Below are positions 472 through 42,705 of a stretch of DNA of 64,000 nucleotides, piece after piece. This DNA is from Gemmatimonadota bacterium (GTDB lineage: Bacteria > Gemmatimonadota > Gemmatimonadetes > Longimicrobiales > Gaopeijiaceae): positions 192,001 through 256,000 of the forward strand of contig JAXHMG010000003.1 of assembly GCA_034521595.1 (NCBI GenBank), read 5' to 3'. The notes under the pieces are model-generated. The model saw nothing but the letters and a program-made list of their open reading frames with translations, did not search any database and was not told the origin of the DNA. A program made the position numbers and the translations under genes. The first letter of the stretch is position 1. Each line of letters starts with the position of its first letter.

Positions 472-1683
472 TCAGCGGCTCCCCCGCTCCCGGTTCATCA
501 ACGCGTCGAGGTCTTCGGAAAGCTGTCCCGACATGTAGCCCATGAGCGACCTGGTCGCGGAGGATTGGTTGAGGGACGTGAGCTGGATGCTGTAGGCGAC
601 CTCTCCCTCCCCGCCGTCACCGTCTTCGACGACCGCGGTGAACCGGAGCGGGTGTCCGGACCCGAGCCTCCCCAGGTGCGTTGGCGAGAGCGGCATCGTG
701 GCCTCGACCGCGTCTCCGGTACCGGCCGGACCCGTCCAGAGGACGTCGGCGTCTTCCGGCCCGTCGAAGTGGAGAACGTAGAGCGTTTCGCCGGCCAGCG
801 GCTCCGGGACGGTGGCCTGGATTGTGAGCGCCGGCGCGAATGCCATGTCCGGGTGGTCGAACTCGAAGCCCGCGGAGTCGACGATCGATTGGAACCGATC
901 GAGCTGCTCGGGTGTGAAGTCGTCGCGGCTACCGAGGAGCGGGGAGAACGCCGCGGTGAGAGTCACGTTGCCGCTGCGCGCGTACCCGACGGTGCGTGCT
1001 CCCCCGACCTGGCCGTCCTCCCTCACGCCGAGTGACGTGGGGCTCGTCCAAGGACGGAGCTCCTCGACCTCCCACAAATCGCTCGGGGCGTTCACGAACC
1101 GGTAGGGGCTGTCCAGGCTCGGATCACGCGCCGGCTCGCAGACGGGGCTGGAGGTGTTCTCGCATTCCTCGACCACCGCGTCCCGGAGGAGAATGGCGCC
1201 GTCACATCCGCCGACCGACGTCGTGAGATCTCCCGCCGCCGCGATCTTCTCCTCCGCTTCCCTCCGCAGCGAGGTGACGGCTTCCGACACGGTCTGCTTA
1301 ATGGCCTGGCGCCGGGCTGCCCGCTCCTCGACCAGCGCCTCGTCGTCCTCTTCGAGAATGCGTTCCGCCAACGCCTGATCCCGGTCGAACCATTCGGCGA
1401 CGTCGGCCTCGACGGGGTCCGTGGTGTCGAACGGCTCGACGCTCGCACGGTCTTCCAGGGCGATCGCGTTCGAGAGATCCATCAGCCGCTGCGAGCGGTT
1501 CGCGAGGGGCTCCAACTCCGTCTCGAGGGCCTCGATCCGCGCGATGACCTCCACGCACTGCCGGGAGCGCTCGAGTTCGACCCGAGCCAAGCCGGTGGGT
1601 GGTCCCTCCTGTGAGCGGGCTGGCACGGCGAGGCTGCCGAGCAGCAAGAGTGCGACGGTGAGTCGCGAACACGAAGGTGACAA
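472..1683 (-). CDS. Secreted hypothetical protein
   Basis: Probable TTG start at 1683 after GGAG; signal peptide (LTVALLLLGSLAVPARS/Q); acidic helical N-terminal half with 4 Cys. The ORF-track extension to 2097 runs through the MITE. Confidence 0.7.
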   Translation of the reverse strand: MSPSCSRLTVALLLLGSLAVPARSQEGPPTGLARVELERSRQCVEVIARIEALETELEPLANRSQRLMDLSNAIALEDRASVEPFDTTDPVEADVAEWFDRDQALAERILEEDDEALVEERAARRQAIKQTVSEAVTSLRREAEEKIAAAGDLTTSVGGCDGAILLRDAVVEECENTSSPVCEPARDPSLDSPYRFVNAPSDLWEVEELRPWTSPTSLGVREDGQVGGARTVGYARSGNVTLTAAFSPLLGSRDDFTPEQLDRFQSIVDSAGFEFDHPDMAFAPALTIQATVPEPLAGETLYVLHFDGPEDADVLWTGPAGTGDAVEATMPLSPTHLGRLGSGHPLRFTAVVEDGDGGEGEVAYSIQLTSLNQSSATRSLMGYMSGQLSEDLDALMNRERGSR

Positions 1684-1889
1684 CGGTGGCTCCAGTGGTC
1701 GGTTCCGATGGTGATGTAGCTTCTGCGCGTCGGTCTCTACACCGCGCGGCCGTGGGGGTTGCCCGGACGCGCGTGCAACTTTTTTCGCCCGGGTCTCGTC
1801 GTATCCAGTGAAGGGCACGTGAGACCCATCGGTGAGATCGGGTGGCTGGTTGTGTGGGAGTGAGGTCGAGCGTGCCGAGCGCTTCGAGG

Positions 1890-2220
1890 CTAGCAGCCCG
1901 TGGCAGAAGTCTGGTGGGTCGCGTCGCGAGGGTCTCGCGGACCCCGACACGGAAGAGCGACCAATGCGATGCCGAAGGCATCGGGGAGGCGCTATGACGC
2001 TACGTACGATGCCGAGTGGCACCGACGCGACAGCGTTGGGCCGCTGCGCGCCCTTCGGACCACCGCTGGGCACGGCGGTGCCGGCGGCATGGCTCATCGC
2101 CGTCGTTGCTCACTCCTCGACGTAGCTTCGGGCTATCGCCTTCGTCGCTCGTCGCCTGTACGGTATGCCGCCAAGGCGCTCCCGTGCGCGACCCACCAGA
2201 CTTCTGCCACGGGCTGCTAG
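1890..2220. mobile_element. MITE with IS5/IS1182-like termini
   Basis: Perfect 30-bp terminal inverted repeats (1894-1923 cagcccgtggcagaagtctggtgggtcgcg; 2187-2216), each flanked by CTAG; no transposase inside. Confidence 0.85.
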
Positions 2221-2271
2221 GGTGGATGTGTGGATGCCGGGTGGCCTCGTCGTTCGTCGACCCCGGAGGAC

Positions 2272-3225
2272 TCAGTCCTCCGGGGTCACTTCGTTCAGCG
2301 CGACCGCGCACGTCGCGGCGTCCAGAAGCGGCGTGGGCACCCCGACGGCCCGCCCTAGCCGGGCGAGCGTGCCTCCGAGCGCGTCCATCTCCGTCCGGCG
2401 GCCGCTCCGTAAATCGTGCAGGACGCTCGGGTAGAAGCTCTCGGGAAACCCGTCCAGGGTCCGCTCCACGCGGGATTCCGCGTCCGGTGGCAAGGCGACG
2501 CCGTGTCCACGCCCCACGGCCAACACTTCCGAGATCGCTCCGGTTTGGAGGTCGCGGCCGAACGGATGAGCCCGGATCGGACCCAGGGCCGCGCCGGTGA
2601 TGCCGCAGATCGTGGCCAGCGCTGAAACCACGGCCATCTTGAGCCAGATCTCGACTCGGATATCGTCCGCCGTGACGACCTCCACGTCCGTGGGTGCGAA
2701 GAGATCGTGAATGGTTTGGAGTCCCTGGGCGTTATGGCCACCAGTCGATCCGATGACGAGCCTTTGGTGCTCACCCTTACGCTCGACGACTCCGGGCGCG
2801 GTCCGGAAAGCCGTGAGATACGCCACCCCGTCCACCAGGCGATCCTCCGGGACGCCGGCGGCTCGCAGGCGGTCGGAAATGTCCACGCCGTTCAAAAGGG
2901 GGACGACGACCGCGCCCTCGGCGGCGAGCGCGGCCAGCCGCGGCGCGACCTCGTCGAGTGAGTACGCCTTGACCGCCACGAACGCCACGTCGGCCGGAGC
3001 GGGCGCCGACTCGGGGCTCACGGGACGTGGATGTGCGAGAAATCCGTCCCGAGGCGTTCGGATCTCGAGGCCTCGAGTCTCCACGGCCTCGGCGTGCGCT
3101 CCCCGGATGACGAGGCGGACGTCGTGTCCCGCGTTCGCGAGGATCCCGGCTACGTAGCTGCCGAGGCCACCGGCACCGACCACCTCGACCCGTAGCGGCC
3201 GGGCCGCGATCGTCCCGTCGCTCAT
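2272..3225 (-). CDS. panE: 2-dehydropantoate 2-reductase
   Basis: VVGAGGLG Rossmann motif, VAVKAY, PLLNG, WLK, PSVLHDL..GRRTE; ATGA overlap with ilvD stop. Confidence 0.9.
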
Positions 3226-4910
3226 GCGTCGGTCACGCACCCGAAGGACGCCGAGGACACGGTACGCACGTACCGTCCCAGAACGCCGCGCCGGGTGGCT
3301 GGCGGGGGCTCGACCCAGGCCGCTCGCCGGCGCGCTCGCTCCGGCTCCTCGACGTCCCATTCGATGCGATCCGCTTCGGCATCGATCGTCACCGTATCTC
3401 CGTCCCTCAGGAGCGCGATGGGGCCCCCGGACTGCGCTTCGGGCGTGACGTGCCCCACCACGAATCCGTGGCTGCCGCCCGAGAAGCGCCCATCGGTGAT
3501 CAAGGCGACCGAGTCCCCGAGCCCCGCCCCGGTTATGGCGGACGTGATCGTGAGCATCTCCGGCATCCCTGGTCCACCGCGCGGGCCCTCGTACCGGATG
3601 ACGACGACGTCTCCGGGCACGATCTCGCCCTGCTGTATGCCGCGGAGCGCCGCTTCTTCACGGTCGTAGACACGAGCGGGGCCAGTGAAGCGCACCCCCT
3701 CCTTGCCGGTGATCTTCGCCACGGCCCCCTCCGGAGCGAGGCTGCCCTCGAGGATCCGGATGTGGCCGGTCGGCTTGATGGGATCGGCGGGCGGCCGGAC
3801 GATCTCCTGCCCCGCGGACAACCCGGGGAGCTCCGCGAGGTTCTCGGCCAGGGTGTGTCCCGTGACGGTCATGCAGCTCCCGTCGATGAGCCCGTGCTCG
3901 AGGAGGAGCTTGAGCACCGCGGGGATTCCACCGACGCGGTGCAGATCTTCCATCACGTGCCGGCCGCTCGGTTTCAGGTCGGCCAAGTAGGGCACGCGCG
4001 CGCTCACCGCCCGGAAGTCGTCCAGGCTCAAATCGACCTCCGCGGCGTGGGCCACGGCGAGCAGGTGGAGGACCGCGTTCGTCGAGCCGCCCAGCGCGGT
4101 CACGAGCGTCATGGCGTTTTCGAAGGCGGCGCGGGTCATGATGGCCCGGGGCGTCAGGCCCGTCTCCAGCAAGCGGGTGACCGCGGTTCCCGCGGCCCGA
4201 CACTCCTCGAGCTTTCGGGGGTCGGTGGCCGGAGTGCAGGCGCTGTATGGCAGGGTCATGCCCATGGCTTCCGCCGCGCTGGCCATCGTGTTCGCCGTGT
4301 ACATGCCGCCGCATGCTCCGGGGCCGGGGCATGCGTGTCTCACGACCTGCGCGAAGCGCTCTTCATCGATCTTTCCCGAGATCAGAGCGCCATAGCTCTC
4401 GAACGTGCTGACGATGTCGAGCGGCTCGTCTCCGAGGCGGCCGGGACGGATCGTGCCTCCGTAGACCATCAACGAAGGTCGGTCTATCCGGGCCATGGCC
4501 ATGAGCGATCCCGGCATGTTCTTGTCACATCCGGGGATGCTCACGTTCGCGTCGTACCACTGCGCCCGCATGACGGTTTCGATCGAGTCCGCGATGAGGT
4601 CGCGGGACGGCAGCGAGTAGCTCATTCCCTCCGTGCCCATCGAGATGCCGTCACTGACTCCGATGGTATTGAACCGCATGGGAACCAGCCCCGCGTCCCG
4701 GGCACCACTCCCGACCGCTTCAGCCAGGTCGAGGAGGTGCATGTTGCACGGGTTGCCCTCCCACCACATGGAGGCGATGCCCACCTGGGCTTTCGACATG
4801 TCCTCGGGGGTCAGGCCCGTGGCGTAGAGCATGGCCTGCGCGTTCGCGTGCGCCGGATCCTGGGTGACGGTGGCGCTGTGCCGGTTCAGCGTCGGGAGGC
4901 GTCGGGTCAC
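3222..4910 (-). CDS. ilvD: Dihydroxy-acid dehydratase
   Basis: [49 protein letters not shown]. Confidence 0.97.
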
Positions 4911-4994
4911 GTCTTCATCTCACGATCTGGATGGTCGGTATCGCTTGCGCCCCGCCGGAATCCGGCTCTTGCCGGGTGGTTTCGACGCGGTGCC

Positions 4995-5468
4995 TCAGTG
5001 CGGCAGGTTGGGGCGCAGCAGGCCGTACGTCCAGGCTCCGGCCAGGGCGGCGAGGAGTCCCACGACGAGGACACCGATCCCGCTCCCGATGAGCGCGAAC
5101 AGGGGCCCGGGGCAGGCACCGATGAAGCCCCATCCGAGTCCGAACGCGATCCCACCGAGGATGTGGTTCTTACGAGGGCGGGCCTGATCACTCTCCGGAA
5201 ACGCGATGGGCTCGCCCCGGATCGTGCGGATGCCGAACCGCTTCATCAGGAATACGGAGAGCGCCCCCACGGCGACGGCCGAGCCGATCACCCCGTACAT
5301 ATGGACGGCGTCGAAGTGGAACATCTCCTGGATCCGGAACCAAGAGGCGACCTCCGACTTGATGAAGATCACGCCGAGATAGATCCCCACCAGGAAGTAG
5401 ACGGCGAGAGACTCCGAGCGGAGGGACTCTCCCGAGCGTCGCGGGTGTTGGACGGCGGTCGGGCTCAT
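4995..5468 (-). CDS. YeeE/YedE-family membrane protein (small partner, DUF6691-like)
   Basis: SWFRIQEMF, FGLGWGFIGACPGP motif; hydrophobic. Confidence 0.85.
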   Translation of the reverse strand: MSPTAVQHPRRSGESLRSESLAVYFLVGIYLGVIFIKSEVASWFRIQEMFHFDAVHMYGVIGSAVAVGALSVFLMKRFGIRTIRGEPIAFPESDQARPRKNHILGGIAFGLGWGFIGACPGPLFALIGSGIGVLVVGLLAALAGAWTYGLLRPNLPH

Positions 5469-5473
5469 GGCGG

Positions 5474-6037
5474 TCAGAGCACCCAGGGGAGGAGGACGTG
5501 AACCGTGAGCAGGCCTCCGGCGAAGAAGCCGAGGACCGCGACGAGCGAGGAGCGTTGGAGGGTCGAGAGGCCGGAGATCGCGTGCCCGCTGGTGCACCCG
5601 TTCGCATAGCGGGCGCCGAACCCGACCAGGAATCCGCCGAGCAGGACGAGCACGAGTCCCGGCACGGACGTCAGGGCTTCGAAGCTGAAGAGGTCGGAGG
5701 GGACCATTCCCGCGAAGTCACGCACTCCGAGTGCCGTGAGCTCCTCCCGCGTTCCCTCCGCGATGGCGACCACGTGATCGGGGCGCGAGAGCACCCGCCA
5801 GCCCAGGAACCCACCGACGAGCATGCCTCCCGCCATGGCCAGGTGCCAGCCGCCGCGGCGCTTCCAGTCGTATCGGAAGTACTCGAGGCCGCTCGGGACC
5901 GCGGCGGCGCAGAGGTGCTGGAGCGACGATGACACACCCCACTTCTTGCCACCGTACCAGTAGATGAAGGGCACGACGAGCCCGATCAACGGGCCCGCGA
6001 CGTACCAGGGCCAGGGACGCGTCAGGATGTCCAGCAC
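5474..6037 (-). CDS. YeeE/YedE-family sulfur-compound transporter
   Basis: PWPWYVAGPLIG, GVSSS, GFGARYANGCTSGH motifs. Confidence 0.9.
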   Translation of the reverse strand: MLDILTRPWPWYVAGPLIGLVVPFIYWYGGKKWGVSSSLQHLCAAAVPSGLEYFRYDWKRRGGWHLAMAGGMLVGGFLGWRVLSRPDHVVAIAEGTREELTALGVRDFAGMVPSDLFSFEALTSVPGLVLVLLGGFLVGFGARYANGCTSGHAISGLSTLQRSSLVAVLGFFAGGLLTVHVLLPWVL

Positions 6038-6152
6038 TCGGGTGTCCTCCGGGGTCCACGGTGCGCTCGCACGGGAGCGATGCCCATCGTCTCGAACACG
6101 AATCTGCGCGGTCGGTCGGCCGCGTGCCAGCCCGGTCGCCTGCGCCGTCCCG

Positions 6153-7628
6153 TCAACCTCCGCCCGATGCGGCGTCCTCGCGGTAGTCCAGCGGTGGATC
6201 CCTGTCCCCGAGCAAAGGCTCGTAGGTCCAGTCGTCGGGAAGCCGCTCCCGATGCTCGGCGCGTGCCCGGTCCAGCAGCGCCGGATCAGTGAGGAGATCC
6301 GCCGCGGTCAGCGCGAGGGTCTTGGCCGCCACGATCATCCCCTTGTTCCCGATCGAGGTCCCGCCGGCGGCGATGGCCTGCCAGGAGTGGGTCGCCGTCC
6401 CCGGTACCCAGGTCGCCGCGCTCATTCCGCCGGTCGGAACGACCCAGCTGACGTCGGCCACGTCCGTGGACCACGACCCCGCGCTCTCGACGACGGCGAA
6501 CGGCTGGACTTCGGAGGCGGATTCGAGCGGAGGGGCGTCGGACGGCAAGCTCTCGCGCAGTCGCTCGGCGAAGGCGCGCTCGTCCTCGTCGTACGTGACA
6601 CCGCCCACGCGCACCAGATTCTCGTGAATGGCCTCCTGGAGTGCGACGTTGGGCAGGAGGTTGTAGAGGCCGTGCATGACCTCGACGTTCATGGTCGTGC
6701 CCGTTCCGAGCGCCGCACCTTCCGCGGCGGCCGTGATGCGGTCGAAGATGGACTGCACTTCGGCGGGGTCGGGGTGCCGGACGTAGTAGTAGACCTCGGC
6801 TGCGTCCGGGACCACGTTGGGCGCGGCGCCTCCGTTGGTGATCACGTAGTGGATCCGCGTCTCCTGCGGCACGTGCTCGCGCATGAGATTCACCATGTGG
6901 TTCATGGCCTCCACGCCGTCGAGCGCGGAGCGGCCCCGCTCCGGGGCGGCGGCGGCGTGCGCGGACACTCCCGAAAAACGGAACCGTGCGGATTTATTCG
7001 CGAGGGTGCTGATCGCGCCCGCGTCGTTGCGGTCGCCCGGGTGCCAGTTGAGGACGACGTCCGCGTCGTCGAAGAGCCCCTCGCGGACCATGTAGACCTT
7101 TCCGGCGCCGCCTTCCTCGGCCGGCGTTCCGTACAGCCGGATCTCGCCGGCTTCGCCGGTCGCGGCCATCCATTCCTTGGTGGCGACCGCCGCCGCGACC
7201 GAACCGGCCGCGAAGAGATGGTGACCGCAGGCGTGGCCCGCGTGGGTTCCTTCCAGTGGCGCCCGCGTCGGGTCGCGGCCCTGGGTGATGCCGGGAAGGG
7301 CGTCGTATTCGGCCAGGATCCCGATGACCGGGCCTTCTTCCTGCTTCCAACTCGCGACGAAGGCGGTCGGGATTCCGGCGACGCCCATCTCCACCTCGAA
7401 ACCCGCCTCGGTGAGCGACGACGCCAACAGCTCGGCACTTTGCTCTTCCTGGTAGCCGACTTCGGCGAGGTCCCAGATCCGTTGGGCCATCTCCCCGTAC
7501 TCCGCCGCATGCCCGTCGATGAAGTCGGTCAGCGCGGAGGGATCGTACTGGGCTTCGGCGATGGACGGCAACGCGACGAGCCCGGACACGAGGACGAGGC
7601 ACGCTTTCGGGGAGCGGAGTCGAAGCAT
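6153..7628 (-). CDS. Exported M20D amidohydrolase (AbgB-like)
   Basis: Signal peptide; AEYDALPG, GHACGH, GTPAEEGG, WHP, GSWSTDV, HSWQ motifs. Confidence 0.9.
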   Translation of the reverse strand: MLRLRSPKACLVLVSGLVALPSIAEAQYDPSALTDFIDGHAAEYGEMAQRIWDLAEVGYQEEQSAELLASSLTEAGFEVEMGVAGIPTAFVASWKQEEGPVIGILAEYDALPGITQGRDPTRAPLEGTHAGHACGHHLFAAGSVAAAVATKEWMAATGEAGEIRLYGTPAEEGGAGKVYMVREGLFDDADVVLNWHPGDRNDAGAISTLANKSARFRFSGVSAHAAAAPERGRSALDGVEAMNHMVNLMREHVPQETRIHYVITNGGAAPNVVPDAAEVYYYVRHPDPAEVQSIFDRITAAAEGAALGTGTTMNVEVMHGLYNLLPNVALQEAIHENLVRVGGVTYDEDERAFAERLRESLPSDAPPLESASEVQPFAVVESAGSWSTDVADVSWVVPTGGMSAATWVPGTATHSWQAIAAGGTSIGNKGMIVAAKTLALTAADLLTDPALLDRARAEHRERLPDDWTYEPLLGDRDPPLDYREDAASGGG

Positions 7629-10389: not shown

Positions 10390-11367
10390 ATGAACCCGCC
10401 GCGCAAGCTGAGTCGTCGTGCTTTCTTGACCCGGAGCACCATGGGAGCGGCCGGCCTCGGTCTGGCCGGCGTCGGTCTGGACGTGGGGTTCGGCGGACGG
10501 GAATTGGAATCGGCTCTACCCCGCGCGCGAGGGCAGTTCCCCGTCGTCGCCTCCGAGCCGTGGGGACGCATCCTCCGAATCGCGGACCGGGTCTGGGCGC
10601 TCGAATCCGACCCTCTGACCGATCGCACGACGCTTTGCAATGGCGGCATCGTGGCGGGGAGAGCCGGGGTCGTCATGATCGAAGCCTTCGGCTCGGACGA
10701 AGGCGCTCGGTGGATGGCGCGGCAAGCGGAACGGCTGGCCGGCCGGCCGCCCACGCACGTGGTGCTCACGCATCACCACGCGGACCACACGTCGGGCCTT
10801 CGGGGAGCGACCGAGACGCGCGGGCTCGAAATCCTCGCCACCGCCGCGACTCTGGAACGAGTCGCCGAGGCCTCTGGCACCCCGGAAGCGGCACCGGAAG
10901 CGGATGTCACCGTCATCGGGGACGGTCGTCCCACGGAGCTCGACCTCGGGGACCGCTCTCTCCTGCTCGTTCCGCGGCGGGGGCATACCGCTTCGGACCT
11001 CACCGTCGAAGTCTTCGATGCTCCGGTCGTCTTCGCGGGGGACCTCGTTTGGAACGGCATGTTCCCGAACTACGTCGACGCGAGTCCGGGACGCCTTTCC
11101 CGGACCGTTCGCGTCCTCAGGGCGCGTGGCGCGGAGATCTACGTGACCGGGCACGGTGCCCTCGCGGACGGCGAGGCTCTCGATCGCTACATCGACCTCC
11201 TCGACCATGTGGAAGGGGCGGCACGCACCGCGGCCGCCGAAGGATGGTCGGCGGCGGAGGCCGCCGCGCGCTACCGGCTCCCCGCCGAGATGGAAGACTG
11301 GACGTTGTTCGACCCCGGATACGTCCAACGTGCCCTCGGCGCGTGGCTCCGCGAGTTGGAGGGATGA
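10390..11367 (+). CDS. Tat-exported MBL-fold metallo-hydrolase
   Basis: SRRAFL twin-arginine signal; THHHADH, GHT, AGDL, GHG motifs. Confidence 0.9.
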   Translation: MNPPRKLSRRAFLTRSTMGAAGLGLAGVGLDVGFGGRELESALPRARGQFPVVASEPWGRILRIADRVWALESDPLTDRTTLCNGGIVAGRAGVVMIEAFGSDEGARWMARQAERLAGRPPTHVVLTHHHADHTSGLRGATETRGLEILATAATLERVAEASGTPEAAPEADVTVIGDGRPTELDLGDRSLLLVPRRGHTASDLTVEVFDAPVVFAGDLVWNGMFPNYVDASPGRLSRTVRVLRARGAEIYVTGHGALADGEALDRYIDLLDHVEGAARTAAAEGWSAAEAAARYRLPAEMEDWTLFDPGYVQRALGAWLRELEG

Positions 11368-11408
11368 CAATTGTGTAGTATCGTCTAGCGCATACGACAA
11401 AATTGTAA
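11365..11408. promoter_or_regulatory. Paired 14-bp palindromic sites upstream of the NifA-like gene
   Basis: TGACAATTGTGTAG (11365-11378) and CGACAAAATTGTAA (11395-11408), starts 30 bp apart; same arrangement as before glnK. Confidence 0.7.
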
Positions 11409-11451
11409 CCCCCGTGCTCGGGGGCGCCCTTCATCGGACGGACGCCATTCC

Positions 11452-13002
11452 GTGGACCGACGCGACGTACGCAAGCTCTCCACTCTGCTCGAGGTCAGCC
11501 AGACGCTCGGCTCGACGCCCGACCTCCGCACGGCGCTCGTGCGCGTGCTCGAGATCCTCGAGGAGCGACACGGAACGGTCGCGGGCGCGGTCACCCTCTT
11601 CGATCGTGACTCGGGGCGGCTGGCGATCGAGGCCGCGACGGGCATCACCTGGCAGGTGCGGCGGCGGGCGTCGTACAAGCTCGGCGAGGGCGTGACCGGA
11701 CGCGTCGTGCAAAGCGGCAAGCCGGTGGTCGTGCCCCGGGTGAGTCACGAGCCGCTCTTCCTCGACCGCACCGGGGTTTGGAAGGAAGGCGGTCACGACG
11801 AGCTGAGCTTCGTGTGCGTGCCCGTCTCCGTGGACGGACGAACGGAGGGGAGCCTCGGCGTCACCGTTCCGTACGATGGGAATCGCTCGTTCGATCGCGA
11901 GACCGAGTTTCTCGGGGTGGTCGCCTCGATGGTCGGGCAGTCGGTGCGGGTTCATCGGCTCGTCGAGACGGAGCGCGAGCGACTCCTGGAGGAGAACAGC
12001 CAGCTTCGCCAGGAGCTCAAAGAGCGCTACGAGTTCCGGAACATCATCGGCAACAGCCGTGAGATGCGGGAGGTGTACGAAGAGGTGGCGCAGGTGGCGG
12101 GGAGCCCGACCACCGTCATGATCCGCGGAGAGTCCGGGACCGGAAAGGAGATGGTCGCTCACGCCATCCACTACAACTCTCCTCGTGCCGAGCGCCCTTT
12201 CGTGAAGGTGAGCTGCGGGGCGCTCCCCGAGAGCCTGATCGAGTCGGAGCTCTTCGGATACGAGCCCGGGGCCTTCACCGATGCCCGCGCCCAGAAGAAG
12301 GGCCGCTTCGAGCTGGCGGACGGGGGGACGCTCTTTCTCGACGAGGTGGGCGAGCTGTCGCAGTCCACCCAGGTGAAGCTCCTGCGGGTGCTCCAGGAGC
12401 AGGAGTTCGAGCGGTTGGGCGGCGTAGAGTCCATCGCGGTGGACGTGCGCGTGATCGCCGCGACCAACAGAGACCTCGAGGGCGCGATGCGCGAGGGCGA
12501 GTTCCGTGAGGATCTGTATTACCGCCTCAACGTGTTCAGCATCTTCATGCCGTCGCTCCGGGACCGGAAACCGGACATTCTCCTGCTCGCGGATCACTTC
12601 GTCGACAAGTACGCGACCAAGCTGGGTAAGCCCGTCCGCCGGATCTCCACGCCGGCCATCGACATGCTGATGAGCCACCACTGGCCGGGGAACGTGCGGG
12701 AGCTCGAGAACTGTATCGAACGGGCGGTGCTGGTCTGCAACGGTGGGGTGATCCACGGTCACGACCTTCCGGCGACGCTTCAGACCGCACAGGTGTCGGG
12801 GACGCTCCCGGGTGCCTCGCTCGAGGACGCGGTGGGAAACTACGAGATGAACCTCATCGCGGATGCGCTCAAGACCGCGCGCGGCAACCAGGCCGAGGCC
12901 GCGAGGCTTCTCGATACGACCCCACGCGTGATCGGGTACAAGGCGAAGAAGCACGGTATCGATCCCGATCGCTACCGGGCCCCGGGGCGCGTCGACGGCT
13001 GA
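11452..13002 (+). CDS. NifA-like sigma54 enhancer-binding protein (GAF-AAA+-HTH)
   Basis: N-terminal GAF ([24 protein letters not shown]), [31 protein letters not shown], Fis-type HTH; no receiver domain. Confidence 0.93.
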
Positions 13003-13066
13003 TCCGCCGGGCTGCCTCGTGTACGCCCGGGCCCATTCGCTTCTTCGTCTCCCCTTGTCCCCCATG

Positions 13067-13110
13067 CAACGAAATTGTCGTTGTATAGGGCTAGGCCTAC
13101 AAAATTGTAG
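13067..13110. promoter_or_regulatory. Putative upstream activator sites for the glnK operon
   Basis: CAACGAAATTGTCG (13067-13080) and CTACAAAATTGTAG (13097-13110), starts 30 bp apart, ~100-140 bp above the sigma54 promoter. Confidence 0.75.
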
Positions 13111-13147
13111 CTCTTTTTTGGCGCGTGGGTTTCGGCATCTGATCTTG

Positions 13148-13160
13148 TAAGTTCTTGCAG
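13148..13160 (-). promoter_or_regulatory. Possible IHF site
   Basis: Reverse strand ctgCAAgaacTTA is a partial match to WATCAAnnnnTTR and lies between enhancer and promoter. Confidence 0.35.
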
Positions 13161-13178
13161 CCATTGAGGTTGTGGTGA

Positions 13179-13634
<456 letters not shown>

Positions 13635-13689
13635 CGCCCGCCCCGCTCCCGTCCCAAGTCCCTTCCCACTCCACACGGTGATCCGAGTG

Positions 13690-15060
13690 ATGAAGCATCA
13701 CATAGATACGGCGTTCTCGCGCATCCTCCTCCCGGGCCTGGCTCTGCTCCTCGCGTCACTGGCCGCTCCCGCCGCGTTGGCGGCTCAGTCGGAGCCTTCG
13801 GTCGATTCCGTAGCGGCCGCGACAGAGCTCGTACAGCGCCACGCGGATTTTCTCTGGACGCTCCTCGCGGCCATTCTCGTGTTCCTCATGCAGGCCGGCT
13901 TTTCCTTGATCGAGGCCGGCATGACTCGGGCGAAGAACGCCGTCAACATATGCATGAAGAACCTCATGGACCTTTCCCTGGGGTCGTTGGCGTTCTGGCT
14001 CGTCGGCTTCGGGATCATGTTCGGACCGAGCGGCGGCTGGTTCGGCACCAGCGGGTTCATGCTCTCCGACTACGCGGCGGACCAGGATCCGTGGCTCTAC
14101 GTCTTCTGGATCTTCCAGACGGTATTCGCGGCGACCGCGGCGACCATCGTGTCCGGAGCGATGGCCGAGCGAACCAAGTTCTCGGCCTACATCATGTACA
14201 GCGTCTTCCTCACGGCCCTGGTCTATCCCGTGTTCGGAAGCTGGGCGTGGGGGAGCCTGCACAAAGGTGACGGTTGGCTCGAAGGGCTGGGCTTCATCGA
14301 CTTCGCCGGCTCCACGGTGGTTCACAGCGTAGGAGGATGGGGCGCGCTGGCGGGCGCCCTGGTCATCGGGCCTCGGCTCGGCCGGTTCACCGCCGACGGC
14401 AAGCCGCGCGCGATGCCCGGGCACAACCTGATCTTCGCTACCCTCGGCATGTTCATCCTCTGGTTCGGTTGGTTCGGGTTCAACGCGGGGAGCACCACTG
14501 CGGCGACCTCCGACATCGCCCTGATCGCGGTGAACACGAACCTTTCGGCCGCGGCGGGCGCGGTCGCTGCGATGCTCACGTCCTGGACCTTCCTCAGGAA
14601 GCCCGACGCGACCATGACGATCAACGGAGCGCTCGCGGGTCTCGTGGGCATCACGGCGGGGTGCGCGAACGTCGTGCCCGGGTCGTCCATTCTCATCGGT
14701 CTGATCTCCGGGGTCATCGTCGTCTTTTCCGTGCTCTTCTTCGACCGGCTTCGGATCGACGATCCGGTCGGGGCGATCTCCGTGCACGGGGTGTGCGGCG
14801 CGTGGGGTACGCTCGCCGCCGGCTTGTTCAACGTGGGCGGCGTGACCTGGGCCATAATCGGTACGCAGCTCCTGGGCATCGCGGCCGCCTTCGTGTGGGC
14901 GTTCGGCATGATGTTCGTCTTCTTCAAGGTGGTTCACGCGACGTTCGGCATCCGGGTTTCCCCCGAAGAGGAAATCGCAGGCCTGGACGCCTTCGAACAC
15001 GGCAACGAGGCGTACGGCCCGGACACCTTCAGCTCCGACGCGCACGGGGTAACGGCGTGA
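13690..15060 (+). CDS. amtB: Ammonium transporter
   Basis: FLMQAGF, DFAGSTVVH, WFGWFGFNAGS, IDDPVGAISVHG, EEEIAGLD..EHG. Confidence 0.97.
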   Translation: MKHHIDTAFSRILLPGLALLLASLAAPAALAAQSEPSVDSVAAATELVQRHADFLWTLLAAILVFLMQAGFSLIEAGMTRAKNAVNICMKNLMDLSLGSLAFWLVGFGIMFGPSGGWFGTSGFMLSDYAADQDPWLYVFWIFQTVFAATAATIVSGAMAERTKFSAYIMYSVFLTALVYPVFGSWAWGSLHKGDGWLEGLGFIDFAGSTVVHSVGGWGALAGALVIGPRLGRFTADGKPRAMPGHNLIFATLGMFILWFGWFGFNAGSTTAATSDIALIAVNTNLSAAAGAVAAMLTSWTFLRKPDATMTINGALAGLVGITAGCANVVPGSSILIGLISGVIVVFSVLFFDRLRIDDPVGAISVHGVCGAWGTLAAGLFNVGGVTWAIIGTQLLGIAAAFVWAFGMMFVFFKVVHATFGIRVSPEEEIAGLDAFEHGNEAYGPDTFSSDAHGVTA

Positions 15061-15134
15061 GGAGCCTTCCCATGCTCATCGAGTCCGACGGTCGGCCGAC
15101 TCGGGTTCGCTCCCGTCATACATCCACTTCCAGA

Positions 15135-15785
15135 ATGACCAAATCCATGATGAAGCCTTTGATCGTCGCCGTGTTCCTGCTCTCGCTCTCCCTCCCCTCC
15201 CGGGCGGTGAGTCAGGAGGTCGATATGACGGCCAACGTCGGCTGGGTGAGCGAGTATTTGTACCGGGGCATCCCGCAGAACACCTCCTCCGCCAGCATGG
15301 GCCTCGACCTGGCCGTGGGGCCCGTGTATCTGGGCACGTGGGCGGCTGATGTCGGGGAAGGCGCCGAGGTGGATCTCTACGGGGGCGTGGGCATCGACGT
15401 GCACGGGCTCGCCCTCAGCGCCGGCGGGACGGGTTATCTCTACACCGGAGAGTTCGACGACACGTATGCGGAGGGGAACTTCGGCGCCGCCTATGGGCCC
15501 GTGTCCGTGGATTTCGCGGTGGGACGGTATCTCACCGATCCCGAGACCCTCGACTACACCTTCCTGGTGGTCGGAGGAGAGGTGCGCGGGTGGTACGCGA
15601 ACCTCGGGCGGTTCGACGGGGACTTCGACGGCATGTACGGCGAGCTCGGATACGGCTTCACCGTCAGCGAGATCGACTTCACCGTCGGTTGGGTGTTGAG
15701 CGATGCCGAGCTCGCCTTGCTTCCTTCGGGTAGGTCGAATGCCACACTGGTCCTGGGGCTGTCCCGGGTCTTCACGTTGAGGTGA
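15135..15785 (+). CDS. TorF/Gcw_chp-family putative outer-membrane porin
   Basis: Signal peptide; ANVGWVSEYLYRGIPQ, YLGTWA, EVDLYGG motifs; beta-strand C-terminus. Confidence 0.8.
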   Translation: MTKSMMKPLIVAVFLLSLSLPSRAVSQEVDMTANVGWVSEYLYRGIPQNTSSASMGLDLAVGPVYLGTWAADVGEGAEVDLYGGVGIDVHGLALSAGGTGYLYTGEFDDTYAEGNFGAAYGPVSVDFAVGRYLTDPETLDYTFLVVGGEVRGWYANLGRFDGDFDGMYGELGYGFTVSEIDFTVGWVLSDAELALLPSGRSNATLVLGLSRVFTLR

Positions 15786-15794
15786 GTCGACGCC

Positions 15795-18506
15795 ATGCGC
15801 ATCCACGAGCACCGGCTACAGCGTCACGCGCAGCAGCGACTCGAGAAGGTCCCGGCCGAAACGGCCAAGCGGATCCGGTCGTTTCGCTCGTTTCTCGAGC
15901 TCGAGTCCGAGCACCTGAGGCGACGCCACGAGTTCGGCCTCGGGGGGCGGGAGATCGCTCGTGGGCGGAGCGACTTGGTGGATGTAGTGGTGGGGCGGGC
16001 GTGTCGGGCGGTGGCCGAGGACCTGGGGCCTACCGCCCGAGAAGAGCTGCGCGGCTGTGCGGTGGTGGCGTTGGGGGGGTACGGGAGGGGGGAGTTGTCT
16101 CCGTGCTCGGACGTGGACCTCCTCTTCCTGCACCCCGGCCGGCCTTCGGCGCTCGTCACCGACTTCGTGGAGGCCGTGCTGCCGCTGCTCTGGGACATCG
16201 GGCTGGAAGTGGGGCACAGCGTTCGCTCGGTTCCGGATTGCGTGCGTTTCGGCCGTACCGATTTGCATGCGCGCAACGCGATGTCGGAGGCTCGCCTGCT
16301 CCTCGGAAGCGAGGCTCTGTTCGATCGGCTTCGGTCCGAGATGCGTGTCAAGGTCTACGGTCAGCCGAAGGCGAACCGGTTCTTCAAGGAGGCCATGGCC
16401 GCGGAAGTCGAGGACCGGCGCGGTCGGTTCGGCTCCGTGGTCGGCATGCAGGAGCCCCATCTCAAGGAAGGAGCCGGCGGACTCAGGGACCTGCACCTGG
16501 TAGGTTGGGTCGGACTCGCCCGTTGGGGCTTCGGGCATCCGGACGAGCTCGTGCGCGCCGGGATCGTGACGGTGGCCGATCACGCCCGTGCCCTGCGGGC
16601 GTACGACTTCATTCTGCGGATCAGGAACGAGGCCCATTTCCAGACGGGGCGGCGCACCGACCTCATCTCCCTGGAGCTGCAGCCCGATCTCGCCAGCGCG
16701 CTCGGATACGCCGATCAGCGGGTGGCTTCGGCTTCGGAGATCTTCATGCGGGATTTTTACCTGCGGGCTCGCGAGCTCCTGCGCTTCTGTGACGCCTTTC
16801 TGGTCCAAGCGGATTTCTGGACTCCGGACGAGGGCGTTCTGTCGCTTCGGAACCGGCCGGCCGCTCGTGCCGTGGGGCCACACGGCCGGTACCGGCTGCG
16901 GGACGGGCGCCTCTTCGCGGCAGGCGAGGGTGCTGCTCGCCAGGACGATCCGATGCGCCTCTTCGAGGTCTGGGAGGTCGCCCAGAAGCACGGGGCGCGC
17001 GTGAGCGAGGAGTTGCTTCAGGAAGCACACGCCAACCTCGACGTGGTGGATCGTCGGGTCCGTCAGTCGCCCGAAGCGTCGGCCGCCTTCCTGCGCATGC
17101 TGGGGCGGGTCGGCCGGGTCGCGCTCGCCTTGCGGCCGATGCACGAGGCCGGATTGCTCGCGAAGTACCTGCCCGAGTTCCGGCGGGTGACACTGATGGT
17201 GCAGCACGACCACTACCATCGCTATACCATCGACGAGCACACGCTCAAGGCGGTGGAAGCGCTCGATGCTCTCGCGGATCCGGCCTCCCGTCCCGAGGCC
17301 CTCGCGGACCTGGGCGACGCATTGGAGGCGGTGGCCGACGTGCGCCGTCTGGCGCTGGGGATCCTTCTGCACGACATCGGCAAGGGCCAGGGCGGAGATC
17401 ACGTGACGAAGGGGGCTCACATCGCGAAGCGTGTGTGCCGGCGCCTGGGGTTGGACGAAAATACCACGTCCGACGTGGTGTTTCTCGTGGAGAACCATCT
17501 CGTCATGTCACGGATCTCTCAGCGTCGCGACCTGACGGATCAAGCCGTGGTCCGGGGCTTCGCCGAGACGGTGGGAAGCCTGGATCGGCTGCGGATGCTG
17601 TACGTGCTCACCTATGCCGACATTCGGGCGGTCGGGCCCGAGACGTGGAACGACTGGAAGGCGGCCTTGCTTCGCGAGCTCTTCGAGCGGACCGAGCCGC
17701 TCCTCGACGGGGGACGCACCCGTCCGGGGGAGCGTGACGTGGATGTCGCGGAACGTGTGCTCGAGCACCTTCCCGGAGAGCTCCGGAAGAGTGATGTCGA
17801 CGCCTTCCTGGACCGCTTGCCGTCACGGTACGGACGGTTGGTGCCTCCGGCTCTCATCGCGCGCCATGTCGAGATGACGCGCCAACTCGAGGACCGTCCG
17901 GTCTTGGTCGATTGGCGAGCTTCCGAGCGCGGCCCTTATACCGTGGTCACCACCTGCTTCAGGGACGCGCGGGGCAGGCTCGGTCGATTGGCGGGCGCCC
18001 TCACCGGCGCGGGCCTCGACATTCTGAGCGTCGACGTGTTCACGCGCGACGACGGTTTGGCTCTCGACGTGTTCAGGGTGAGCGAGGCCATGGGACCTCG
18101 GCAGGTTCAGCCGGTTCCCGAGCCTCGATGGCACGAGATCACCGCCCAGCTCGAAGCCGTGCTCGCCGGAAAAGCGGATCCGAGTGAAGCGGTCGAGCGT
18201 CAGCGGACGCGCCAGATGCGTCGGAGGGCCCGCCGGCCGCCTGCTTCGCCCCTCGTGCGGTTCGTGCCGCCCGACCGCTCGAACCGGACCGTCCTGGAGG
18301 TCCGGGCGGACGACGAGCCGGGCGTAGTCTATCGGATCGCGAAGACGTTGGCCGGGCTCGATCTCGACATCAAGCTGGCCAAGATCGCGACCGAGAAGAA
18401 CCAGGCGCTCGACATCTTCTACGTCACCGAGGAGGACGGATCCCCGCTCGGGGCGGATCGCCGGTCCGAGGTGGAGTCCGCTCTGCTCGAAGCGCTGGGG
18501 ATTTAG
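15795..18506 (+). CDS. glnD: [Protein-PII] uridylyltransferase/uridylyl-removing enzyme
   Basis: ALGGYGRGEL.P.SDVDLL nucleotidyltransferase motif, EPHLKEGAGGLRD, HRYTIDEH, LLHDIGKG, two C-terminal ACT domains. Confidence 0.97.
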   Translation: MRIHEHRLQRHAQQRLEKVPAETAKRIRSFRSFLELESEHLRRRHEFGLGGREIARGRSDLVDVVVGRACRAVAEDLGPTAREELRGCAVVALGGYGRGELSPCSDVDLLFLHPGRPSALVTDFVEAVLPLLWDIGLEVGHSVRSVPDCVRFGRTDLHARNAMSEARLLLGSEALFDRLRSEMRVKVYGQPKANRFFKEAMAAEVEDRRGRFGSVVGMQEPHLKEGAGGLRDLHLVGWVGLARWGFGHPDELVRAGIVTVADHARALRAYDFILRIRNEAHFQTGRRTDLISLELQPDLASALGYADQRVASASEIFMRDFYLRARELLRFCDAFLVQADFWTPDEGVLSLRNRPAARAVGPHGRYRLRDGRLFAAGEGAARQDDPMRLFEVWEVAQKHGARVSEELLQEAHANLDVVDRRVRQSPEASAAFLRMLGRVGRVALALRPMHEAGLLAKYLPEFRRVTLMVQHDHYHRYTIDEHTLKAVEALDALADPASRPEALADLGDALEAVADVRRLALGILLHDIGKGQGGDHVTKGAHIAKRVCRRLGLDENTTSDVVFLVENHLVMSRISQRRDLTDQAVVRGFAETVGSLDRLRMLYVLTYADIRAVGPETWNDWKAALLRELFERTEPLLDGGRTRPGERDVDVAERVLEHLPGELRKSDVDAFLDRLPSRYGRLVPPALIARHVEMTRQLEDRPVLVDWRASERGPYTVVTTCFRDARGRLGRLAGALTGAGLDILSVDVFTRDDGLALDVFRVSEAMGPRQVQPVPEPRWHEITAQLEAVLAGKADPSEAVERQRTRQMRRRARRPPASPLVRFVPPDRSNRTVLEVRADDEPGVVYRIAKTLAGLDLDIKLAKIATEKNQALDIFYVTEEDGSPLGADRRSEVESALLEALGI

Positions 18507-18591
18507 TAGCCTCGCGTCCGGCGGGGGGCTCGGCGCTCCGAGCGCCTCGGTCGCTCGGTCGTGGCGAGCACGGCGTGTGAGCCACGGGCTA

Positions 18592-19248
18592 TCAGGGGTA
18601 GAGGCGGACGGTGCGCCACTCCGCCCCCACGCGCTCGAAGACGATTCGGTCGTGGAGACGGTCGTCCCGGCCTTGCCAGAACTCGATCCGTTGGGGGGTG
18701 AGGCGGTATCCGCCCCAATGCGGCGGCAGGGGGATCTCGGTTTCTTCGAAGCGTCGCCGGACATCCCGGACGCGCTGCTCGAGCTCCGCGCGGGACGCCA
18801 GCGGACGACTTTGATCCGAAGCCCACGCACCGATCTTGCTGCCTTCCGGGCGCGTGCTGAAGTAGCTGTGGCTTTCCTCCTCGGAGACGCGCGCCACCGG
18901 CCCTTCGATGCGTACTTGCCGGTCCTGCTCTTTCCAGTGGAAGCAGAGTGACGCGTGCGGATTCGCGTCCAACTCCGATGCCTTTCGACTCCCGTAATTC
19001 GTGAAGAAGGTGAAGCCCTGGTCGTCCATTCCCTTGAGGAGCACCATGCGGACGGAGGGGCGGCCTTCGGGCGTCGCCGTCGCGAGCGCCGTGGCTTCGG
19101 GAAGCTCCACGCCATCATCGCGCGCGGCATCGAACCAGCGCTCGAAGAGATCCAGGGGATCCTGCTCGTCATCCAGTTCCAGTTGGTGCGGTGCTCGCCC
19201 GGGCCCCGTGAGCGGCTCCCCTCCGGATGGGGCAACCCTTTCCGACAT
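18592..19248 (-). CDS. pdxH: Pyridoxamine 5'-phosphate oxidase
   Basis: PSVRMVLLK, FFTNYGSRK, RQVRIEG, EFWQGR..RLHDR. Confidence 0.96.
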   Translation of the reverse strand: MSERVAPSGGEPLTGPGRAPHQLELDDEQDPLDLFERWFDAARDDGVELPEATALATATPEGRPSVRMVLLKGMDDQGFTFFTNYGSRKASELDANPHASLCFHWKEQDRQVRIEGPVARVSEEESHSYFSTRPEGSKIGAWASDQSRPLASRAELEQRVRDVRRRFEETEIPLPPHWGGYRLTPQRIEFWQGRDDRLHDRIVFERVGAEWRTVRLYP

Positions 19249-19456
19249 AACGAAATCTCCAGCTCGTGCCGCGGTCGTATCGGTGAGTGCCGGCGGAGGC
19301 TACGTGCTGCGCCGTCGCCACCCGTGGCTCGGCCAATGACTTCCGCCGGGTCTCTGCCATGAACTGCCAACACAACCCCTTCGTGCCCGGGGAGGTCCCG
19401 CGCGCCCGGCGGCGACTTTGTCGATCGCCGGCTTTCCGGTACCTTTCATGACGGAA

Positions 19457-19474
19457 GCCCCCCCCGGGGGGGAT
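19457..19474. promoter_or_regulatory. CsoR-type operator (C-tract/G-tract palindrome)
   Basis: gCCCCCCCCGGGGGGGat about 25 bp upstream of the csoR start. Confidence 0.7.
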
Positions 19475-19496
19475 GGGTTAATAGCAGGAGTGGCTG

Positions 19497-19775
19497 ATGG
19501 CACATGAGGAGAACGATGATGTGCTCCGACGGCTGAAGAGCGTCGAGGGCCATGTGCGGGGCGTTCAGCGCATGGTGGAGGAGGACGCGTACTGCATCGA
19601 TGTCGTCAACCAGATCCTCGCGATTCAGCGGGCCCTGAAGCAGGTGAGCGCTCGCGTGCTCGACGAGCACCTTCATTCGTGCGTGACGGAGGCGGTGCGT
19701 GGCCCGGACGTCGCGGATCGTGAGCGGGTGCTCACCGAGCTGTTACAGGTGTTCGAAGCAACCGGCAAGAGTTGA
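19497..19775 (+). CDS. csoR: Copper-sensing repressor
   Basis: RLKSVEGHVRGV..M, YCIDV, EHLHSCV (Cys/His/Cys ligands). Confidence 0.93.
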   Translation: MAHEENDDVLRRLKSVEGHVRGVQRMVEEDAYCIDVVNQILAIQRALKQVSARVLDEHLHSCVTEAVRGPDVADRERVLTELLQVFEATGKS

Positions 19776-42350: not shown

Positions 42351-42636
42351 CCGCTTCCTCCGTCAGGGATGATCGATGGTGGCGGCCGCGCCAGGCGACC
42401 GTCCGCCATGCGCCGCCACGCTAACCCGTTCCTCCAACGTCCACCACCGTCCGCTCCCGAGCAGCACCTGACGTAAAGTCGTGGGTGGAGTGCCCCCGAC
42501 TGTGGTACGCCTTCTGCCATGTACGAGGCCGAATACCTCCTGCGCCTAGCTTCCGGTCGCATCGCGGGAGCCACCCCACACGCGAGCCTTCCTCGCGTGA
42601 GAGGATGACCCGCCATTTTGATTCCCTCTCGCGATA

Positions 42637-42674: not shown

Positions 42675-42705
42675 TGATCCACGAAGCTTCGAGGTGCGAA
42701 CGAGC

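Follow-up and report, generated by a model that had tools for sequence, protein, structure and literature searches.

What controls ammonium uptake in a bacterium that carries a NifA-like activator directly ahead of its glnK and ammonium transporter genes and has no nif genes in view? The question is raised by a 64,000-nucleotide stretch of DNA from a Gemmatimonadota bacterium (hereafter the window), C3:192001-256000 of a three-contig, 3.49-Mb genome that is 93% complete and about 67% G+C, in which a gene for a sigma54-dependent activator of the NifA family is followed by glnK, amtB, a putative porin gene, and glnD. The closest relatives of the activator are labelled Gemmatimonadota, and the same-family genome that holds locus L171 is labelled Longimicrobiales. 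Nitrogen control is known through NtrBC in the Proteobacteria, GlnR and TnrA in the Firmicutes, GlnR and AmtR in the Actinobacteria, and NtcA in the Cyanobacteria. A preliminary description of this DNA had proposed a self-contained circuit, independent of NtrBC, in which GlnK gates the activator. The reading that we reach from comparative sequence analysis, and to which we assign a probability of about 0.7, is that the activator would be a dedicated, autoregulated one-component sigma54 activator of ammonium scavenging, working through paired dyads and the glnK-amtB-porin-glnD operon.

Results

The activator and the genes behind it

Pfam and NCBIfam searches confirmed all five genes that the preliminary description had recognized, namely an activator lacking a receiver domain, placed ahead of a sigma54-type promoter, and glnK-amtB-porin-glnD (Table 1). 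The activator has the GAF, sigma54 AAA+, and Fis-type helix-turn-helix (HTH) architecture of NifA (Pfam GAF at residues 24-164, Sigma54_activat at 198-364, AAA_lid_14, and HTH_8 at 465-500); Pfam found no Response_reg domain in it, the receiver by which NtrC is recognized, and found GAF instead. Its best NCBIfam model is nifA (TIGR01817) at 526.1 bits against a cut-off of 528.85, a marginal miss, and the NtrC model reaches 328.5 bits over the AAA+ part only. It carries a GAFTDA loop, a variant listed as compatible with activation in the covered text of one paper. Among PDB entries, Azotobacter vinelandii NifA (9qq6 chain C) matches residues 8-500 best, at 406 bits, and the best solved match to the GAF region (residues 8-181) is Aquifex Nlh1 (84 bits). 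At least 120 metagenome clusters are at least 68% identical to the activator, and most of the named proteins in the best 120 clusters carry, in one source, the label "Nif-specific regulatory protein."

GlnK scores 142 and 135 bits with P-II models, below their enterobacterial equivalog cut-offs, and 107 bits with the Pfam P-II model, above its cut-off. GlnD is full length (TIGR01693, 660.7 bits against a cut-off of 519.4, residues 40-901), and its uridylyltransferase, HD, and ACT regions were all found. The porin scores 43.7 bits with the TorF model, slightly below the cut-off of 47.15, and 30.3 bits with Pfam PF09694, above the cut-off of 24; the porin and AmtB each have a hydrophobic N-terminal stretch, a signal peptide having been judged by eye only. 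The genes are separated by 55 bp (glnK-amtB), 74 bp (amtB-porin), and 9 bp (porin-glnD), and no terminator-like site was found on the + strand within 11000-19500. An Rfam search (E up to 0.1) returned zero matches in 10500-19500; there is thus no known riboswitch or leader in this region.

Table 1. Features of the locus, with positions counted from the first letter of the window
Feature	Position	Strand	Remarks
Dyad A, TGACAATTGTGTAG	11365-11378		First of the pair before the activator gene; overlaps the stop of the metallo-beta-lactamase-fold gene
Dyad B, CGACAAAATTGTAA	11395-11408		55 bp 5' of the activator start codon; presumed autoregulatory site
Activator (NifA-family sigma54 activator, GAF-AAA+-HTH, 516 aa)	11452-13002	+	Pfam domains, NCBIfam models
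Dyad C, CAACGAAATTGTCG	13067-13080		Putative upstream activator site 1, centre about -162 from the predicted start
Dyad D, CTACAAAATTGTAG	13097-13110		Putative upstream activator site 2, centre about -132; perfect palindrome CTACA-N4-TGTAG
-24/-12 (sigma54-type) promoter match, TGGTATGGCGCTTGC	13210-13224	+	72 bp 5' of the glnK ATG
glnK (112 aa, P-II models, Tyr51 present)	13296-13634	+	
amtB	13690-15060	+	TIGR00836, 436.6 bits, above cut-off
Putative outer-membrane porin, TorF/Gcw_chp family	15135-15785	+	
glnD, P-II uridylyltransferase/uridylyl-removing enzyme	15795-18506	+	GlnD_UR_UTase, HD, ACT

Paired dyads around the activator gene

Two pairs of dyads with the consensus CTACA-N4-TGTAG flank the activator gene, and the spacing is 30 bp in both. 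The A/B pair occupies the 84-bp gap 5' of the activator gene, which separates it from a metallo-beta-lactamase-fold gene upstream; the C/D pair lies about 111-143 bp upstream of the promoter element, dyad D starting 113 bp 5' of it. From the spacing rule, we take transcription to start near 13236. The exact sequence CTACANNNNTGTAG occurs once in the genome, at dyad D. The core AC[AG]W4[TC]GT occurs 44 times in 3.49 Mb, with three of these sites within 1.75 kb around the activator gene; within the window, all three matches fall at the activator locus, a number reached by 1 of 100 shuffles. Loose dyad pairs number 64 in the genome, and the two that flank the activator have the AT-richest spacers (7/8 and 8/8; the next best has 6/8). 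Of the three runners-up with 6/8 spacers, one (C2:173351, a 30-bp pair) lies within a 1677-aa coding frame and was judged to be chance. A degenerate pattern, C[TG]AC[AG]N4[TC]GT[AC]G, gave 295 matches, mostly intragenic CGACG...CGTCG, and was replaced by the AT-spacer pattern.

The upstream activator consensus of NifA is TGT-N10-ACA, and no such site is present in the 310 bp between the activator gene and glnK. Upstream of the glnN and gltB genes of this bacterium, there are neither dyads nor a -24/-12 match. Within the reach of the motif scan, the predicted regulon is this locus alone; a dyad enhancer found at no other place in the genome fits the "self-contained" circuit of the preliminary description.

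Related loci share the activator, the dyads, and ammonium-uptake genes

We fetched 80 loci by similarity to the activator protein, and nitrogen genes follow the activator in three of the five closest (L020, L021, and L024). In L020 (activator 78% identical), it is followed by amtB-glnK, with dyads 32 bp apart and the promoter element TGGTACGCCCCTTGC at the same distance; in L021 (76%), by glnD-glnK-amtB with a promoter element; and in L024, from a metagenome-assembled genome (MAG) of the Spirochaetaceae (52%), by amtB-glnK with paired CTACA-N4-TGTAG and GG-N10-GC. A further locus of the same family as the window, L288 (81%), has the activator, two dyads at 30-bp spacing, TGGTACGACCCTTGC 113 bp beyond them, and then amtB-glnK and a TorF porin gene, the last encoding a protein 50% identical to the porin of the window. 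No proteobacterial NifA locus among those fetched has an adjoining arrangement of amtB, glnK, or glnD.

We also sampled 200 other genomes of the phylum, 18 of which have a full-length orthologue at least 52% identical (one of them the unpublished G057; the negatives include three unpublished genomes). We fetched 17 of these 18 loci: 4 from the family of the window and 13 from another family, f4. All four own-family loci (genus g2, 52% identical) read activator-amtB-glnK with paired CTACA-N4-TGTAG and GG-N10-GC; the dyads in these four, L020, and L024 are 28-32 bp apart. Dyads also stand 5' of the activator gene in L022, L023, and L024, all fetched by protein similarity, and in L147, L165, L214, L216, and many others, of which L165, L214, and L216 are Planctomycetota loci. 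Overall, 24 of the 30 dyad-clade loci from several phyla have dyads adjoining the activator gene on at least one side, 20 of the 30 having been fetched by the dyad itself.

The comparison supports the view that the activator gene, the paired dyads, the predicted -24/-12 promoter, and the ammonium-uptake genes form a conserved unit. The wiring of a NifA-like activator to glnK-amtB-porin-glnD, put forward in the preliminary description, gains support from this conserved enhancer-promoter unit, and the synteny survey that it called for finds the arrangement beside orthologous activators in the same family and in other phyla.

The dyad pair retrieves NifA-like genes

To approach the dyads by DNA pattern only, we scanned a genome collection for CTACANNNNTGTAG, a gap of 12-18 bases, and a second CTACANNNNTGTAG, which returned at least 120 loci. 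Among the matches listed, an activator (at least 44% identity), amtB, or glnK lies within 8 kb or less at 45 of 120 loci, or at 44 of 78 when Bacillota are excluded; we estimate the chance expectation at fewer than 1 of the 120 loci, by arithmetic of gene size against genome size rather than a run control. The pair retrieved NifA-like genes and, again among the matches listed, not receiver-type activators. Glutamine synthetase genes flank the dyads at about 150-170 bp in L170 (type III; Verrucomicrobiota) and L197 (type I; Phycisphaerae), and dyads stand at about the same distance before nifB-nifV in L199 (a Bacteroidales MAG, 2882-5818). In L167 (Prosthecochloris ethylica, 598-7269), a NifA gene and dyads are followed by nifH-nifI1-nifI2-nifD-nifK, the nifI names being given from position and P-II likeness; the clade member encoded there scores 535.1 bits with the NifA model, above the cut-off. 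In diazotrophs, the dyad clade appears to supply the real nif activator.

The Bacillota loci (L157, L188, L196, and others) have an extended dyad, TACTACA-N4-TGTAGTA, and in the three tested (3/3) a gene of the BlaR1 type (peptidase M56) lies about 375-420 bp from the site. We take these to be operators of the BlaI/MecI type, bound by repressors, with the TACA/TGTA core shared by coincidence; on the BlaR1-type flanking open reading frames (ORFs), the Bacillota loci were rejected as members of the activator system. In L209 (Saccharicrinis, 1792-3018), a gene for a phosphate-selective-type porin lies 287 bp from the dyad pair. Outer-membrane channels seem to recur in the dyad regulon, given this porin and the TorF porins of the window and L288.

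Placement of the activator beside NifA

We built a quick maximum-likelihood tree (LG+G4) of 66 proteins, with rows hand-picked from the fetched loci, support from the Shimodaira-Hasegawa-like approximate likelihood ratio test (SH-aLRT) only, and three of the genome's own receiver-type bacterial enhancer-binding proteins (bEBPs) as outgroup. The window activator falls within a 41-row clade (SH-aLRT 93), together with all of the dyad-associated activators, the NifA of Chlorobi, and the orthologues from f4. The sister of this clade is a 14-row group (86), in which 13 rows are proteobacterial NifA and the remaining one is a Desulfobulbus relative. The branch that unites clade and group has support of 99, and the Nitrospira-type NifA-like proteins fall outside it. 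As to the phylogenetic check suggested in the preliminary description, the activator is thus placed in the sister group of proteobacterial NifA. Proteins of the 41-row clade have no counterpart to the long, Cys-bearing linker found in proteobacterial NifA, and their HTH is different as well; in the alignment, the C-X4-C linker of the Bradyrhizobium, Azospirillum, and Aromatoleum rows, a feature of the oxygen-sensitive NifA proteins that act without NifL, is absent from the window activator, whose linker is short and whose recognition-helix sequence departs from that of proteobacterial NifA.

We provisionally define a dyad-associated NifA-sister clade. The window activator belongs to it by branching (SH-aLRT 93, no bootstrap) and by paired dyads, in the range of 27-32 bp apart, beside its gene and upstream of a -24/-12 promoter. 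Members come from the Gemmatimonadota, Acidobacteriota, Planctomycetota, Spirochaetota, Chlorobiota, Bacteroidota, Myxococcota, Verrucomicrobiota, Bdellovibrionota, Omnitrophota, Margulisiibacteriota, and others. The window activator groups with L020 and L021 (support 100) and is nearer to the rows of f4, a Vicinamibacterales MAG, and a Calditrichaceae MAG than to genus g2 of its own family (52% identical), a placement that suggests horizontal transfer or old paralogues.

Nitrogen genes elsewhere in the genome

The genome has one ammonium transporter gene, the amtB of the operon, and one large subunit of glutamate synthase. A single glutamine synthetase was found, of type III by length and match (about 730 aa; C3:2574525-2574980, - strand); the sequence upstream of its gene is rich in A+T and shows neither dyads nor a -24/-12 match. 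Two P-II matches are present. The second lies outside the window (C3:1071570-1071854, - strand) at the extreme end of an open frame of 1183 codons whose beginning resembles a CzcA-type resistance-nodulation-division efflux pump. It either is fused to the pump or comes directly after it, and is presumably a metal-efflux-linked P-II-like protein rather than GlnB. GlnK is the sole canonical P-II protein of the genome, and amtB, glnK, and glnD all lie in this operon. The preliminary description had noted that the window lacks nif genes, which holds genome-wide for nifH: the best match on the three contigs (3.49 Mb) scores 26.9 bits against a cut-off of 394. Likewise, none of the five genomes with the amtB-linked arrangement, two of them 96-97% complete, has a nifH above the cut-off. 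The preference of the preliminary description for ammonium scavenging over nitrogen fixation is borne out to this extent.

What the GAF domain may sense

The preliminary description had gone further and proposed a closed feedback loop, in which GlnD uridylylates Tyr51 of GlnK according to glutamine and GlnK or its uridylylated form binds the GAF domain and switches the activator. Its observation that Tyr51 is intact stands: GlnK has a T-loop of canonical form with Tyr51 (alignment A1), glnD sits in the same operon, and the same holds for L021, while L148 also keeps Tyr51; GlnK is, in addition, the only canonical P-II protein of this genome. Control by P-II through the GAF domain has been described for NifL-less NifA proteins in the covered text of one paper (PMC3854208). 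However, the window, L021, and L148 are the only ones of the 21 amtB-linked P-II proteins aligned to keep Tyr51 and the canonical T-loop. In the other 18 (L020, L024, L143-L146, L153, L160, L164, L165, L176, L181, L194, L201, L212-L214, and L216), position 51 is V, F, I, M, H, or T and the T-loop base reads GCGQQKG, and no glnD was found beside their genes; yet the alignment shows strong conservation of the GAF domain throughout the activator clade, and the activators and dyads are conserved too. Since most of the amtB-linked P-II proteins lack both Tyr51 and a linked glnD, the input shared by the family cannot need uridylylation. The closest solved GAF domains also point elsewhere: a review, in the text covered, describes the pocket ligand of Nlh1 as unknown (PMC9866876), and that of A. 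vinelandii NifA binds 2-oxoglutarate according to the part of a paper that was covered (PMC12998190).

Because the GAF domain is conserved while most linked P-II proteins are without Tyr51 and a linked glnD, we favour, though tentatively and at somewhat less than even odds, a small ligand such as 2-oxoglutarate as the GAF signal, and consider direct gating by GlnK, and with it the closed loop of the preliminary description, less likely. The two inputs may also act together, with GlnK adding a second layer in this organism. A structure prediction for the GlnK trimer with the GAF domain (residues 1-190) gave a complex score of 0.00 in two runs, with controls that did not fold, and so weighs neither for nor against such gating.

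Other candidate regulators of the operon

The genome has rpoN and 11 proteins with a full sigma54-interaction module; a GAF domain occurs only in the activator, and the other 10 begin with receiver domains. One of these ten could be a functional NtrC that drives the glnK promoter, leaving the NifA-like gene a coincidental neighbor that regulates something else. They are REC (receiver)-AAA+-HTH proteins with NtrC-model scores of up to 449.8 bits, proteobacterial glnK-amtB is NtrC-dependent, and the f4 orthologues of the activator are unlinked to amtB, all of which would suit this explanation. Against it, no bEBP of the genome reaches the NtrC equivalog cut-off of 558.6 bits (a cut-off tuned on other phyla), the dyads stand on both sides of the NifA-like gene here and beside the activator gene in most loci of the dyad clade, and the dyad pair by itself led to NifA-like and not receiver-type genes. 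We consider this explanation improbable by a wide measure, although a functional NtrC could be present among the receiver-type proteins. The claim that the window has no ntrBC needs qualifying: nothing in it scores at the NtrC cut-off, but an NtrC-family response regulator (REC-AAA+-HTH) is encoded at 42694-44094, the genome's second-best NtrC match (430.6 against 558.6 bits), with no histidine kinase gene among the adjoining ORFs scanned. Independence from NtrBC is likewise plausible rather than settled, with no protein at the cut-off on one side and ten receiver-type bEBPs, one in the window, on the other.

That the activator is a true NifA, with nif targets in the unassembled 7% or recently lost and the glnK operon a secondary target or chance neighbor, is very improbable: its NifA score falls just below the cut-off, clade members do stand directly before nifHDK (L167) or have dyads before nifB (L199), and the genome is only 93% complete, but nifH was found neither here nor above the cut-off in the five linked genomes, and the genome's only dyad pairs are at this locus.

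Neighboring genes and other observations

The gene after glnD encodes a pyridoxamine-phosphate oxidase (Pfam) on the opposite strand. A second -24/-12-like match, TGGTACGCCTTCTGC, lies at window 42503-42517, about 180 bp before the receiver-type activator gene at 42694-44094; an RtcB RNA ligase gene is found at 38280-40019, and the ORFs between it and that receiver-type activator gene have no Pfam match. Elsewhere in the genome, two AT-spaced single sites, C3:1012504 and C3:1012636, are 132 bp apart and non-palindromic and were judged to be chance. The region that holds both (L276, C3:1010000-1016000) has few long ORFs, no tRNA, and a seemingly low G+C content, judged by eye over 900 bases; these features may mark an island that was acquired or has decayed. 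Four DNA sequencing runs from two studies cover all or part of the window, and the best of them, labelled salt pan metagenome, may be the source sample.

Discussion

In the reading that we prefer, the activator would bind, as a dimer or higher oligomer, the two dyads about 132 and 162 bp upstream of the predicted start, oligomerize, and remodel the sigma54 holoenzyme at 13210-13224, so that activation from the dyads is predicted along with binding. Its GAF domain, whose signal we infer, would report nitrogen shortage and thereby bring about transcription of glnK, amtB, the TorF-type porin gene, and glnD as a single putative operon. With the A/B pair in front of its own gene, the activator is most likely autoregulated. 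NtrC represses a sigma70-type promoter at its own gene; by likeness to it, the direction that we would expect is repression of a sigma70-type promoter, and none was detected before the activator gene. GlnD, as a glutamine sensor, and GlnK, through Tyr51, would act after translation, with GlnK plugging AmtB once nitrogen returns.

Several observations weigh against this reading. Dyad C is an imperfect palindrome, L021 has no clear dyads, and TGGTATGGCGCTTGC matches 9 of the 12 specified positions of the -24/-12 consensus. The -24/-12 pattern was found three times in the window against 1.55 expected, and 18 of 100 shuffles reach three; the pattern alone is not above chance, and the glnK promoter call is supported because its position is conserved in related loci. 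At 10 or more of the 12 positions, the 67% G+C genome yields 162 candidates, and a regulon defined by a genome-wide -24/-12 scan was dropped as noisy, the glnK promoter itself scoring only 9. No RNA sequencing runs covering the stretch are listed, and co-transcription and the promoter are predictions. The 20 activator loci fetched by the dyad pattern are not independent of that pattern, and the ten receiver-type bEBPs could in principle act on the glnK promoter too.

A further caution comes from family f4, whose orthologues are 54-65% identical to the activator: none of the 13 is beside nitrogen genes, no dyads were found around the six f4 activator genes scanned (0/6), and amtB-glnK in five f4 genomes (L267-L275; G125, G121, G025, G045, and G122) has neither paired dyads nor a strong -24/-12 element, although two f4 loci have a single dyad-like site 5' of amtB. 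The f4 activators are instead neighbors of alpha-2-macroglobulin and PBP1c genes or of trigger factor and ClpXP genes; large ORFs following them were considered as glutamate synthase, and Pfam identified them as alpha-2-macroglobulin and PBP1c. In several f4 amtB-glnK operons, a TTGACA-type promoter is surrounded by repeated boxes that contain TGCA, a pattern that suggests another regulator even though the 54-65% identical NifA-like gene is present elsewhere in these genomes. As the f4 orthologues lack both adjoining nitrogen genes and paired dyads, the link between activator and ammonium genes is lineage specific.

The layout recalls known systems and departs from each of them. Enterobacterial NtrBC acts through a sigma54 promoter and paired bEBP sites before glnK-amtB and through autoregulatory sites at its own promoter, whereas the activator described here has no receiver domain and no partner kinase, its signal would enter by the GAF domain, and the genome has no NtrC equivalog. 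In the Actinobacteria, amtB-glnK-glnD is a standard operon name, and the operon likewise joins the transporter, the P-II protein, and the modifying enzyme; its regulators there are GlnR or AmtR, acting at sigma70-type promoters, whereas the order here is glnK-amtB-porin-glnD with a sigma54 activator. The remark that glnD is usually unlinked therefore holds for the Proteobacteria and not for the Actinobacteria. With proteobacterial NifA, the activator shares the design of a GAF-AAA+-HTH one-component sigma54 activator, its best PDB and NCBIfam matches, and the sister position in the tree. It differs in having no nif genes as targets where NifA has them, in scoring just under the NifA cut-off, in its linker and recognition helix, and in a putative enhancer centred on ACA-N4-TGT rather than on the TGT-N10-ACA of NifA.

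Aquifex is a non-diazotroph that nevertheless has NifA-like proteins. Of the two, Nlh1 and Nlh2 (PDB 4g3k and 4g3v), Nlh1 is the closest solved GAF relative of the activator; a role in the control of nitrogen assimilation, as opposed to fixation, has been speculated for it (PMC9866876), and the review text covered gives no target genes or binding site for it. A closer functional parallel is EbpA of Leptospira interrogans, a bEBP of the GAF type that lacks a receiver domain, activates amtB together with sigma54, and is needed for growth at low nitrogen, as binding and knockout data indicate in the covered text of a review (PMC12655853). According to the same text, EbpA is nonetheless FhlA-like with two GAF domains, is not encoded beside amtB (LIC_10132 against LIC_10441), and has a regulon with two lipoproteins and no glnK or glnD named. 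A NifA-like gene also adjoins nxrAB in Nitrospira, according to the covered part of another paper (PMC6606698). Our literature search, which had the primary Leptospira and Aquifex papers and supplements outside its scope, returned no account of a paired-dyad enhancer or of nitrogen control in the Gemmatimonadota; as nitrogen regulators, it returned EbpA alone for the Spirochaetota and none for the Gemmatimonadota, Acidobacteriota, or Planctomycetota. NifA-family proteins in non-diazotrophs were already known; what appears to be new is a NifA-sister activator with its own predicted enhancer, apparently closed onto glnK-amtB-porin-glnD.

The Gemmatimonadota, Acidobacteriota, Planctomycetota, and most Spirochaetota are abundant in soil, sediment, and salt-pan habitats, and the locus offers a compact candidate for study, with a defined activator, a putative enhancer, a promoter, and four target genes. 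If the GAF ligand can be identified, two dyads and a -24/-12 promoter might also be used as a portable switch that responds to nitrogen. For annotation, the label "Nif-specific regulatory protein" cannot count as evidence of nitrogen fixation, a point that affects metagenomic surveys of nifA. More broadly, and as a proposal that we hold with a little less than even confidence, the NifA-sister clade, found in at least a dozen phyla, may be a general one-component nitrogen regulator of bacteria lacking NtrBC, with a conserved GAF pocket that would sense nitrogen or carbon status and paired TACA-N4-TGTA enhancers on amtB-glnK, glutamine synthetase, and, in diazotrophs, nif genes; NifA would then be a specialized offshoot, and the Gemmatimonadota version would have added GlnD and a P-II protein with Tyr51, closing the loop on itself.

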